From the NCBI RefSeq assembly GCF_053078305.1, contig NZ_CP166879.1: DNA of 64,000 nt; one strand, written 5' to 3'. Positions 27,838 through 31,174 of the stretch are shown in pieces; the stretch's first letter is position 1, and every line of letters starts with the position of its first letter. Position numbers and translations under genes: made by a program. The notes under the pieces were generated by a model. The model had not been told where the DNA came from. It searched no databases and saw nothing but the letters and a program-made list of their open reading frames with translations.

Positions 27838-28292
27838 TGGCGAAAAATGACTTTAAAGCGTTTGCAACGGATCGAAATGCCAATGTTATATCGCAGGAGG
27901 AATGGGAAGCGTTGCCCGCGCTTTTATCCGGATTTACAGCAGGGAAAGCCTCCAGTGCGCAAGTCAATAAGGTTATTCGGCAGGTCAGCTTTATTGCTGC
28001 AGCTCTGGCCCAGTTTGTAAGTGATAAAACGCAACGGGATGTGCTTGATAATGGTGATCTGCCCGGTTTTGTTGAATTGCTGGGATCGGGGTTTGCTGTT
28101 GAATACCTGAGCCGCAAGAATCCGTTTGGTGATATCAAATCGGATGGCACGGTGAAAACGGCTCTCGAAAACCTTGGTTTGGGAGAAGAGCACAGCGTTA
28201 AGCCGGGTTGTTTCTGCCTGCGTCAGCTTCCGCCCGGCCTGCAATTTCAGCTGAATCAGACTAATGGAAGCCATAGCCGCATCAATCAGTGA
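27837..28292 (+). CDS. Tail fibre, constant N-terminal part, fused in the present orientation to only 34 codons beyond the crossover site
   Basis: ATG 27837 overlaps gpI stop; reads through site at 28162-28187 (N-L-G-L-G-E) and stops at 28290. Confidence 0.6.
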   Translation: MAKNDFKAFATDRNANVISQEEWEALPALLSGFTAGKASSAQVNKVIRQVSFIAAALAQFVSDKTQRDVLDNGDLPGFVELLGSGFAVEYLSRKNPFGDIKSDGTVKTALENLGLGEEHSVKPGCFCLRQLPPGLQFQLNQTNGSHSRINQ

Positions 28293-28715
28293 CTGGCGCC
28301 GTACTTCTGCCGCGTCTACTGCGGCGTTATGCTGTGCCTCAGTGTCGGTCACCCATTTCTCACCATCCCATTTATCGTATGACGTTAACGGGGCGATAGT
28401 GGTTGTATTTTCAGGGTAATCACCCGGAACTGTGATTTCTTTTGATTCTCCTGTTTCGGTGCTATAGACGATTTCACCGCGATGGTCTGGCACATATTCC
28501 CATGAGTTAAAATCTGCAGAACGGCAAATTGCATAACCAGCTTTATATGAGCCAGGAGCATCTAAACAGGAACATGCCGGGATACCGACACCCACAGCAA
28601 GATATTCAGTTGATGTGGAAATATATTCCCGTGTTTCACCATCATAATTATAAACGGTAATGTCTCCGGCCTTTGTGGCGATGAGTTCATTATTTAATAC
28701 AGCTTTACTTATCAT
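27924..28715 (-). CDS. Tail fibre assembly protein (Tfa/U-like); in this orientation the frame reads through the crossover site into antisense of the fibre gene
   Basis: ATG at 28715 overlaps stop of variable fibre cassette (ATGA); native C-terminus probably near the site at 28187. Confidence 0.5.
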   Translation of the reverse strand: MISKAVLNNELIATKAGDITVYNYDGETREYISTSTEYLAVGVGIPACSCLDAPGSYKAGYAICRSADFNSWEYVPDHRGEIVYSTETGESKEITVPGDYPENTTTIAPLTSYDKWDGEKWVTDTEAQHNAAVDAAEVRRQSLIDAAMASISLIQLKLQAGRKLTQAETTRLNAVLFSQTKVFESRFHRAIRFDITKRILAAQVFNSKPRSQQFNKTGQITIIKHIPLRFITYKLGQSCSNKADLPNNLIDLRTGGFPCCKSG

Positions 28716-29196
28716 GCAGCCCTCACAATATAATTAAAGGCGATGTTACGGGAGCGGGTTTCAGATGCTGTGCGAACTGAGCGAGATGCGTCGAATGTCC
28801 AGTTATAAGCGCCATAACCCTCAATAATTTCGGCTTCCTTTAGACCTGTAGATAATACTTGCCCATGTTGACTAAATGGCCCTGAACTAAGTACGTCTCT
28901 AAAAAGCTGGGTACGCCCAAAAGAACCAACAATATTCTGAATTGCATCATTCTGTGCAGATAATAAGTTACGACCAGAGTCAATCCCGCGCCCATCATCC
29001 CAGCCACGAATAAATTCACCGCGTAAATCTGGTAATTTTAATGTTGGGTAAGCCTTTGCCAGATTTGGGTACTTTTCAGAAGAAAATACTGCTCCGTTAC
29101 ATTTTAGCCACCCCATTGGCGGAGTGGCTGAAGGCCACGGAACAGGCACACCAACCGGTAATGCAGAGCCTTCTCCCAAACCAACGTTTATGAAAA
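28162..29196. mobile_element. Invertible DNA segment (about 1 kb) flanked by inverted 26-bp Pin/Gin/Hin-type crossover sites at 28162-28187 and 29171-29196
   Basis: Perfect 14-bp inverted core TTCTCCCAAACCAA (29171-29184) and its reverse complement TTGGTTTGGGAGAA (28174-28187); invertase gene adjacent. Confidence 0.75.
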
Positions 29197-29250: not shown

Positions 29251-29805
29251 ATGCTTATTGGCTATGTACGCGTATCAACAAATGACCAGAATACCGATCT
29301 ACAACGTAATGCGTTGAACTGTGCAGGATGCGAGCTGATTTTTGAAGACAAGATAAGCGGTACAAAGTCCGAAAGGCCGGGACTGAAAAAACTGCTCAGG
29401 ACATTATCGGCAGGTGACACTCTGGTTGTCTGGAAGCTGGATCGGCTGGGGCGTAGTATGCGGCATCTGGTCATTCTGGTTGAGGAGTTGCGCGAACGTG
29501 GCGTTAATTTTCGCAGCCTGACGGATGCTATTGATACCAGCACACCGATGGGGCGTTTTTTCTTTCATGTGATGGGGGCCCTGGCTGAAATGGAACGAGA
29601 ACTGATTGTTGAACGAACAAAAGCTGGACTGGAAGCTGCTCGCGCACAGGGACGAATTGGTGGACGTCGTCCCAAACTTACACCAGAACAATGGGCGCAG
29701 GCCGGGCGACTAATTGCATCAGGAGTTCCTCGCCAGAAGGTGGCGATCATTTATGATGTTGGCGTATCGACTTTGTATAAGAAGTTTCCGGTCGGAGATA
29801 AATGA
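29251..29805 (+). CDS. pin: Serine DNA invertase, Pin/Gin/Cin/Hin family
   Basis: MLIGYVRVSTNDQ with catalytic Ser; C-terminal HTH; 184 aa; adjacent to crossover site. Confidence 0.9.
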   Translation: MLIGYVRVSTNDQNTDLQRNALNCAGCELIFEDKISGTKSERPGLKKLLRTLSAGDTLVVWKLDRLGRSMRHLVILVEELRERGVNFRSLTDAIDTSTPMGRFFFHVMGALAEMERELIVERTKAGLEAARAQGRIGGRRPKLTPEQWAQAGRLIASGVPRQKVAIIYDVGVSTLYKKFPVGDK

Positions 29806-29885
29806 AACCGTAGCACGTCGTATGCAAGAACGTGCCACGGCTGGCTGATAAGCTTGTAAAAATATTGAACAGGGAGTGGAGCATT

Positions 29886-30533
29886 CTATGAAGCTAATTT
29901 GTTTAATTTCATTTGTAGTGACTTTACTTCTTGGTCGATAATGTCGAATCCCTTATTGACAGCATCTCTTAGCTCTGCATCAATATTTTTTATCCCTTGA
30001 GCATAATCTACCATTATATTTATTTTTGCATCATGTAATCTCTTATACATGGTTTTATTTTTGTTATTGTCTGCCATGCCAATAAGGATTTTTTCATAAT
30101 CCTCAATGAGTTTGTTGTTTCCTTTAAATGATTGTATTAATGAGCGTGAATATGTGTATATGTTAATTATTGAGTCTCTAGCAGAATCATTTAGTTTTGC
30201 AATGACATTCGCATTTTGCTCATAGAATGTGAAATTATCATCCCCTACAGGGAATGTGAGAATCAACATTTGTCCCGGTTTTATATTATCAATGTGTGTT
30301 TTCATCCTTTTATTATATAAATTGATTAGGGTGAAAACTTCTCCCTTAACTCCTTTTAATACTGAAAGTTGTAATTCAAGGGATTCTCTTTCTGTCTCTA
30401 CTTTAGACAGCTTAGCTTGTTGGGTAACTCCTTTTAGGGTAAACCATCCGCCAATAAGAGTACCAACTAGAGCTGTGAGGGAGGAGGATAACCATCCAGG
30501 TATGCTATTTAAAAGATTACTAAATTCACTCAT
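29886..30533 (-). CDS. Hypothetical membrane-anchored protein (N-terminal TM helix, coiled-coil-like remainder); prophage cargo
   Basis: ORF track 215 aa; hydrophobic stretch WLSSSLTALVGTLIGGWFTL; strongly AT-rich. Confidence 0.5.
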   Translation of the reverse strand: MSEFSNLLNSIPGWLSSSLTALVGTLIGGWFTLKGVTQQAKLSKVETERESLELQLSVLKGVKGEVFTLINLYNKRMKTHIDNIKPGQMLILTFPVGDDNFTFYEQNANVIAKLNDSARDSIINIYTYSRSLIQSFKGNNKLIEDYEKILIGMADNNKNKTMYKRLHDAKINIMVDYAQGIKNIDAELRDAVNKGFDIIDQEVKSLQMKLNKLAS

Positions 30534-30593
30534 TATAAGTACTCGCTAATATTGAACGATATATATATATCAAATTATTATAAAACTCGTCAG

Positions 30594-30935
30594 CTACTGG
30601 AGAAGGCTACCTGAACTTCGATCTATTCCTGCATCCATATAGTTGATGGTCTTCTGGAGCTCTTCGATTAGGGCAACAGCTTTTGCTCGAGAAATGCATA
30701 TTAGTTGATCCGGAAATTCTTGTAAGGGCCAGTTTGGTATACAGGCCATGTTATCAATGAAGGATGCAGACAAGTAAACTTCATTGGTAACCAGAGAATA
30801 GCTTACCTCAAAATTGGTGAGTTCCGGCAAACTGCTAACGTTTGACTCTTTTCTGCGCATAATATTATCCATGACTGTAATTATGTACAGGTGATGGTCT
30901 TCAATTTCGAAGAGGGAGTCAAGGGGGAGTCTCAA
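30594..30935 (-). CDS. Hypothetical protein, upstream partner of the membrane protein; prophage cargo
   Basis: ORF track 113 aa from TTG; alternative ATG gives about 92 aa; AT-rich. Confidence 0.4.
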   Translation of the reverse strand: MRLPLDSLFEIEDHHLYIITVMDNIMRRKESNVSSLPELTNFEVSYSLVTNEVYLSASFIDNMACIPNWPLQEFPDQLICISRAKAVALIEELQKTINYMDAGIDRSSGSLLQ

Positions 30936-31174
30936 ATGAACCGTTATAGAAAAAGGGGGGGGATCTTTGTGTTGCTGAACTTATGCAAAATTTTTTTGCA
31001 CCATAAATCCAACAACACATTCAATAACACATTGCTGTATCACTATGAAAATAAATGTGTTTTTATTTGATTTCACACATATCACAATTGATGCATTTTT
31101 TAGTGATTAACAGCGCCATAAGGAAACTCTCAAAACAACACAAACCGGGCGGGCATTATACGCGCATTCTTTAC

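Follow-up and report, generated by a model that had tools for sequence, protein, structure and literature searches.

A putative stand-alone cargo gene for a predicted membrane-anchored protein at the right end of a SEN34-like Escherichia coli prophage

Morons are genes found in some phages of a lineage, with a deviant base composition and a promoter and terminator of their own, and they are expressed from the repressed prophage (PMC3594210). In phage HK97, the moron protein gp15 is located in the inner membrane, where it mediates superinfection exclusion (Cumby et al. 2012, as summarised in PMC3594210). Other accessory genes of temperate phages occupy typical map positions. In lambda the gene order is cI-rexA-rexB, and in P22 the gtrABC genes lie between the tailspike gene and attP. 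Here we describe a gene which resembles a moron in its distribution and in its base composition. This gene, coding for 215 amino acids, is present in 79 E. coli genomes and is replaced in relatives by a 281-aa gene or by an acyltransferase gene; its GC fraction is 0.329, against about 0.50 for the neighboring genes pin and yfhH. It is located in a 64,000-nucleotide stretch of contig NZ_CP166879.1 (assembly GCF_053078305.1), hereafter called the window. A sequence-only reading of this stretch had proposed that it forms, together with a smaller gene, a two-gene accessory or defence module between a Pin invertase gene and chromosomal yfhH.

The two co-directional minus-strand open reading frames (ORFs) on which this proposal was based are present where they had been placed. 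The larger one starts with ATG and codes for the 215-aa protein. The smaller one, as called mechanically, starts with TTG and extends from 30594 to 30935, corresponding to 113 codons. The features of the locus, with the boundaries retained after analysis, are collected in Table 1.

Table 1. Features of the right prophage end in the window, with strand and the evidence used to define them.
Feature	Position	Strand	Evidence
Pin-type DNA invertase, left border of the variable slot	29251..29805	+	annotated pinE in near-identical genomes
Putative stand-alone cargo gene (moron), 215 aa	29886..30533	-	ORF, GC, homologues, AF2 model, topology, dN/dS
60-nt spacer, 23% GC, holding (AT)6	30534..30593	-	composition, 12 related loci
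88-aa conserved backbone gene of the SEN34-like lineage, PHROG 17793	30594..30860	-	PHROG match, homologues, SEN34 context, dN/dS
5' extension of the 113-aa ORF, probably noncoding, upstream region of the 88-aa gene	30861..30935	-	outside the PHROG match; CTG in relatives; PGAP CDS of 267 nt
Phage-side arm of the attachment site, with G8/C8 and AACACA/TGTGTT motifs	30936..31071		sequence inspection, relatives
attR core TTCACACATATCACAATT, right prophage boundary, yfhH-yfhL intergenic region	31072..31089		direct repeat and empty sites

The stretch had been described as visibly AT-rich compared with both neighbors, and computing the base composition confirmed this impression. The GC fraction of the 215-aa gene (32.9%, with 28.7% at third codon positions) is well below that of pin (0.499), yfhH (0.519) and the whole window (0.516). 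The spacer is even poorer in GC (0.233). For the small gene, the value is 0.427 over its 88 codons and 42% over the mechanical 113-aa ORF. The AT-richness of the stretch is therefore mostly due to the 215-aa gene.

Two repeat tracts reported at this locus were also located as claimed, an (AT)6 tract at 30559-30570, inside the spacer, and a G8 tract at 30955-30962, which reads C8 on the coding strand and precedes the 88-aa gene. Across 12 related loci the spacer tract consists of (AT)4, 5, 6 or 7, and the length of the spacer varies from 56 to 62 nt. Slipped-strand variation of this tract, which is flanked by the hexamers TTGATA and TATTAG, might in principle affect how the 215-aa gene is expressed. 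A promoter dependent on it (TTGATA-N16-TATTAG) was considered but not adopted, since the final T that is conserved in -10 hexamers is missing from the candidate and the consensus scan gave no call. The C-run is also polymorphic in length, appearing as C7, C8, C9 or an interrupted C4-5 in relatives, and the adjoining T-run varies as well.

In near-identical E. coli chromosomes, a prophage of about 42 kb lies between yfhL and yfhH. Its gene order is integrase, family-A DNA polymerase, VapE primase-like gene, Mu-like baseplate genes, tail fibre genes with the Pin invertase, and finally the 215-aa gene. An 18-bp exact direct repeat, TTCACACATATCACAATT, was found at both ends of the prophage, including the integrase end, in a near-identical genome (L004). 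The same sequence occurs only once in the window. Genomes in which the site is empty align with the window from position 31072 onward only. The repeat at both ends and the alignment of the empty sites thus place both genes inside the prophage, at its right end, as expected from the proposed location between the tail-fibre/invertase block and the first core gene. The prophage is SEN34-like, and both genes are found between the Pin invertase gene and attR, beside yfhH.

The arm separating the small ORF from the att core is 136 nt long. Several AACACA/TGTGTT motifs, in both orientations, were detected on the phage side of the core, with one more on the host side (window 30966-31144). The phage side also contains an AT-rich palindrome, TGCAAAAAAATTTTGCA. 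The motifs and the palindrome are putative sites for recombination proteins, the motifs probably corresponding to recombinase arm sites.

Further differences were observed on the other side of the cargo. The Pin-invertible tail-fibre segment (28189-29189) is in the opposite orientation to that of the closest complete genome (L001), and its alleles have diverged from those of this genome (79-89% identity, versus 99.7% for the flanks). Downstream of pin, at 29783-29839, a partial match to CssrB, a Shigella sRNA, was obtained from Rfam with 31.7 bits, compared to a gathering score of 76. This sub-threshold match is probably due to chance.

The boundaries of the small gene had to be revised. PHROG 17793 matches residues 26-113 of the 113-aa ORF (E=1.3e-43), covering positions 1-88 of the 91 positions of the profile. 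The 61 homologues retrieved, from E. coli, Salmonella and Citrobacter only, are nearly all 87 or 88 aa long, and the coding sequence called by PGAP measures 267 nt in some genomes. Moreover, the ATG at codon 22 of the 113-aa ORF is replaced by CTG in relatives (loci L002, L022 and L023). Together, these data establish that the real gene codes for 88 amino acids, and the remaining 5' part of the ORF is probably a noncoding upstream region. The dN/dS ratio of the 88-aa gene (0.03-0.24) indicates purifying selection. Thus, the sequence-only reading was right to place a genuine gene on the minus strand here, but the size that it gave was too large. PGAP leaves this gene unannotated in most E. coli genomes; in a minority of them it is called, as WP_001253100.1 and WP_032214641.1.

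PHROG 17793 was the sole match for the 88-aa protein, which gave none in PADLOC, NCBIfam or Pfam scans, and the PHROG family carries no annotated function. The AF2 model (pLDDT 75) consists of a beta-hairpin followed by a C-terminal helix, for which Foldseek detected no fold match in the PDB. The genomic position of the gene is more informative. In Salmonella phage SEN34, a homologue with 80% identity lies beside the integrase gene, across attP. The 88-aa gene and the att arm are present in about 120-153 complete E. coli genomes, and throughout the lineage the gene stays beside attP, regardless of the cargo. It is therefore a conserved gene of the phage backbone, adjoining the attP arm and separate from the cargo.

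The DNA between the tail-fibre/invertase block and the att site had been suspected to be accessory, and a survey of related prophages revealed that the cargo is indeed swapped at this slot. Sampled genomes with the 88-aa gene and without the 215-aa gene contain instead a gene for a 281-aa hypothetical protein and a shortened invertase gene. The deposited phage vB_EcoM-611R5 displays the same arrangement, with the 281-aa gene and a truncated invertase gene at the slot and the 88-aa gene present. This alternative cargo, WP_001039127.1 (loci L002 3869-4714 and L022-L024 2354-3199), always occurs with the truncated invertase; it has no match in Pfam or PADLOC. In SEN34, the slot is occupied by an acyltransferase-3 gene and a 73-aa ORF. 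The 215-aa gene is thus swappable cargo within the phage lineage.

In near-identical genomes, the 215-aa gene is annotated as coding for the hypothetical protein WP_040091219.1. Among 5,426 complete E. coli genomes, 79 contain it, each as a single copy and at no other locus. None of these 79 copies has an interrupted reading frame (95-99.8% identity), and dN/dS values of 0.06-0.15 (0.06 versus a 97%-identical relative) reveal purifying selection. From the intact frames and the dN/dS values, we reject the idea that the gene is a pseudogene. Shortened copies, of 139-204 aa, are nevertheless listed in some E. coli records. Across Enterobacterales, 216 homologues with 63-74% identity were retrieved, all of them labelled hypothetical and all without Pfam domains.

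Outside the SEN34-like lineage, the family travels in a variety of elements. At least 12 unrelated settings contain a member of the 215-aa family and lack the 88-aa gene: they include prophage immunity regions, prophage ends, phage-plasmids, a satellite-like element, an integrative and conjugative element (ICE) and small islands. The gene is found in an Enterobacter islet beside higBA, in a Dickeya ICE with ccdAB, IS110 and T4SS genes, at the end of a Citrobacter prophage, where it follows tail fibre, umuDC and SRAP genes, in a Klebsiella island, in 20 IMG/VR viral contigs and in lambdoid prophages of Providencia, immediately downstream of cI and an HSDR_N gene. In one such Providencia prophage (L013 3013-5657), the genes for a cI-like repressor, a 385-aa HSDR_N (PD-(D/E)xK-like) protein and a 218-aa family member all lie on one strand; the 385-aa protein has no PADLOC match.

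More distant subfamilies, at 28-32% identity, display similar diversity. Their members occur in an integrase-DEAD-capsid satellite-like element of E. coli and Klebsiella, in a small integrase-bearing islet that Cronobacter and Klebsiella carry at several chromosomal sites, in a sopAB/GpJ phage-plasmid, and, immediately downstream of an HTH_3 gene, in a metagenomic prophage. In addition, 29 non-mobilizable plasmids contain one; most of these plasmids measure about 106-127 kb, and the one that was read is an IncFIB plasmid with phage genes. In Cronobacter and Klebsiella, the gene for the 211-aa subfamily member is followed, 27 nt downstream and in the same direction, by a 142-aa gene in every copy read (L053-L056 6001-7092). 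All these copies belong to the same small islet, and the 142-aa gene product has no Pfam match.

All-against-all BLAST of the ORFs within 3.5 kb at 16 loci detected no neighbor family common to the contexts, and in one pair of contigs (L045 compared to L038) the synteny of the flanks is inverted around the gene. The GC content of the gene is 33-36% in every host, versus 40-58% in the flanks. A tblastn search of the phage genomes deposited in INPHARED gave no match to the family. Altogether, the 215-aa gene behaves as an autonomous single-gene mobile cassette, that is a moron with no obligate partner.

The mobile unit seems to extend beyond the coding sequence. Indeed, in four unrelated contexts the conservation continues for about 170 nt on its upstream side and about 25 nt on its downstream side. 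The upstream region (L005 5830-6000, L010 5830-6000, and the equivalents in L038 and L044) starts with GCCAGAAG..GTTAAACATTGTGAGT; the Providencia copy retains just its two ends. It has no match in Rfam, and may serve as a promoter/leader or encode a regulatory RNA. A promoter-like sequence, TTCATT-18-TATAGT, was read from the alignment of this region in the four other contexts; it is not found in the window copy, from which both the upstream region itself and three residues of the N-terminus present elsewhere are missing. A consensus scan of the minus strand of the window, spacer included, detected neither a sigma-70-like promoter nor an intrinsic terminator for the 215-aa gene. The same scan found no terminator-like site between yfhH and the 215-aa gene. 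In the lysogen, the gene might thus be expressed from its own signals or, in the window, by transcription coming in from yfhH, which has the same direction.

The 215-aa protein belongs to a large family. From among 1.84 billion cluster representatives, a search with its profile retrieved 666 clusters (50% identity) at E≤1e-3, of which 250 at E≤1e-10. Almost all of them are about 190-220 aa long, with the same layout. Residues E65, Y73, F101, Y126, N139, N140, Y177 and G24 are invariant or nearly so, and all family-invariant residues are kept in the window copy. Neither the query nor 10 distant relatives gave a match in Pfam, NCBIfam, PADLOC or PHROG, and scanning 47 family members against Pfam was equally negative. 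The statement that no phage structural, lysis or regulatory family is recognisable in either protein is thus upheld, PHROG 17793, with no annotated function, being the sole match for the pair. The family of the 215-aa protein has neither a name nor a Pfam model, and reaches well beyond Enterobacterales. A literature search on WP_040091219 and WP_001288815 returned no papers.

The AF2 model of the 215-aa protein (pLDDT 82, pTM 0.70) comprises a membrane helix prolonged by a long helix (residues 13-82), a conserved non-helical segment (83-101, containing FPVGDDNF) and two more long helices (116-154 and 160-214). The Kyte-Doolittle maximum is at residues 15-33, within a single glycine-rich hydrophobic helix spanning residues 13-33 approximately. 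Hydropathy thus confirms the single N-terminal transmembrane helix originally described; the rest of the protein, in which a coiled-coil-like region had been noted, is predicted to form long helices. Sequence-profile searches of the PDB gave chance matches only, and Foldseek comparison of the model to the PDB revealed only generic helical bundles (best E 0.06).

The orientation in the membrane was predicted from the distribution of charges. On average, 3.15 lysines and arginines were counted in the C-terminal flank of the hydrophobic helix, versus 0.57 in the N-terminal flank, and 43 of 47 members agree with the positive-inside rule in this orientation. Moreover, relatives with long N-terminal extensions begin with segments resembling signal peptides. 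The charge bias and these extensions together place the helical bundle in the cytoplasm, with a predicted N-out/C-in topology.

The sequence-only reading treated the two genes as one module, and the arguments in its favor are that they are co-directional, only 60 nt apart, and together in all of the 79 E. coli genomes containing the 215-aa gene. Such an operon could for instance be a sensor-effector or toxin-antitoxin pair. A pair of this kind is difficult to reconcile with the distribution of each gene. In at least about 40 E. coli genomes, as well as in Salmonella phage SEN34, the 88-aa gene is present and the 215-aa gene is missing. Conversely, when 43 loci with a 215-aa homologue were searched by tblastn, the 88-aa gene was detected only where the identity of the 215-aa protein is at least 96%, and it was absent from all other contexts, that is from every context outside the lineage. 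Homologues of the 88-aa protein come from E. coli, Salmonella and Citrobacter alone, compared with the 666 clusters of the 215-aa family, and in loci L032-L037 the two genes differ in their divergence from the window (97% versus 85-89%). We therefore consider a two-gene defence operon very improbable. As the 88-aa gene is kept with differing cargo and the 215-aa gene occurs elsewhere without it, the former is a backbone gene and the latter is cargo. Adjacency at a prophage edge does not by itself indicate a module, and the object of interest here is one gene, not two.

What this gene does was approached from its position and architecture. We hold the architectural and evolutionary account given above with high confidence: the 215-aa gene is a well delimited example of the many uncharacterised prophage morons or accessory genes of mobile elements. 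The overall explanation that we favor, as somewhat probable, combines an 88-aa backbone gene with an independent 215-aa moron, whose membrane-anchored product would act alone in the lysogen, most likely in competition between mobile elements. The protein would be held in the inner membrane by its single N-terminal helix, with a few N-terminal residues facing outward and a bundle of about 180 residues in the cytoplasm. Solo action on the cytoplasmic side of the membrane of the lysogen is suggested by the lone occurrence of the gene in the accessory slots of many mobile elements and by its slot downstream of repressor genes. Its most likely role would then be superinfection exclusion or abortive infection against incoming phages. 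Taken separately, this defence or exclusion role remains tentative: the protein is a plausible candidate, as judged from position and architecture. Several results count against the explanation, namely the negative PADLOC scans, the negative comparisons to known exclusion proteins, the consensus scan with neither promoter nor terminator for the gene in the window, the predicted cytoplasmic domain, and the negative search of INPHARED.

Alternatively, the 215-aa gene might be a silenced or decaying passenger, AT-rich, repressed by H-NS and without function in its present host. A GC content of 33%, the missing upstream region and N-terminal residues of the window copy, the lack of a promoter call in the consensus scan and the shortened E. 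coli copies are all compatible with this idea. We find it improbable, as the frame is intact in every one of the 79 genomes, selection is purifying even against the 97%-identical relative, and no family-invariant residue has been lost. More serious, while still rather doubtful in our opinion, is an accessory membrane protein serving a purpose other than defence, such as envelope or stress adaptation, membrane organisation, or the maintenance or transfer of the element. Family members do reside beside partition genes in phage-plasmids and beside T4SS genes in an ICE, the helical bundle carries no catalytic or nucleic-acid-binding signature, and PADLOC detected no known defence gene among 8 neighboring proteins. 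However, the gene is dispensable and swappable within a single phage lineage, and it lies after repressors and beside att sites, as conflict genes expressed in lysogens typically do. Moreover, a fixed partner or position was seen in no type of element, arguing against a core maintenance function. Competition between mobile elements remains our preferred role for the independent 215-aa moron. More speculatively, the protein might be the founding member of a large family of partner-free, single-gene systems directed against phages or other mobile elements at the inner membrane face. Its members, cytoplasmic helical bundles tethered to the membrane and carried by temperate phages, phage-plasmids, satellites and ICEs, would exclude or abort incoming elements. 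If exclusion or abortive infection were its function, the gene would be a widespread and very compact single-gene addition to the defence catalogue (about 850 nt with its own upstream region). It would also explain why temperate phages, phage-plasmids and ICEs of clinically important Enterobacterales repeatedly carry this gene as cargo.

The family was finally compared to described systems. In PADLOC-DB v2.0.0 (2023), no family was matched at E≤1 by either window protein; 10 distant relatives gave only chance-level matches (E≥0.003), and 8 neighboring proteins none. From AFDB50, Foldseek retrieved members of the protein's own family and also proteins annotated as DUF4760 (PF15956), the latter with E values of 1e-6 to 4e-5 and TM scores of 0.57-0.72, both sides of this comparison being predicted structures. 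The two groups have similar lengths and an N-terminal helix in common. However, sequence identity is only 14-20%, and the DUF4760 Pfam model matched neither the query nor any of 47 family members. DUF4760 is itself uncharacterised, and is mentioned in one paper of the literature searched, in a list only.

By its map position, which varies in content within the lineage, the 215-aa gene resembles P22 gtrABC and the SEN34 acyltransferase-3 gene. Unlike these, its product has no acyltransferase or glycosyltransferase domain and is not a multi-pass protein; as its bulk is predicted to be cytoplasmic, direct modification of the O-antigen is unlikely. The predicted cytoplasmic domain also distinguishes it from classical injection blockers, which face the periplasm.

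Comparison of the 215-aa protein to gp15/YebO, SieA, SieB and RexB with hhalign gave probabilities of 0.05-0.4%, indicating no homology. HK97 gp15 (0.4%) is a 62-aa protein encoded within a tail operon with an annotated terminator, whereas the 215-aa protein has a large predicted cytoplasmic bundle and is encoded at a prophage end. The resemblance between the two is of another kind: both are single added genes of deviant base composition, absent from close relatives and with homologues outside prophages, and each is predicted to encode a small inner-membrane protein. As in the rexA/rexB and sieA/sieB systems of lambda and P22, the product of the 215-aa family is predicted to be membrane-associated, with one membrane helix where RexB, SieA and SieB have several. 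No RexA-like partner is conserved across the contexts of the family, in contrast to lambda. On the other hand, family members in Providencia prophages and in the metagenomic prophage take the position of lambda rexAB, immediately after the repressor gene, and the Providencia order of cI, HSDR_N gene and 218-aa gene resembles cI-rexA-rexB of lambda.
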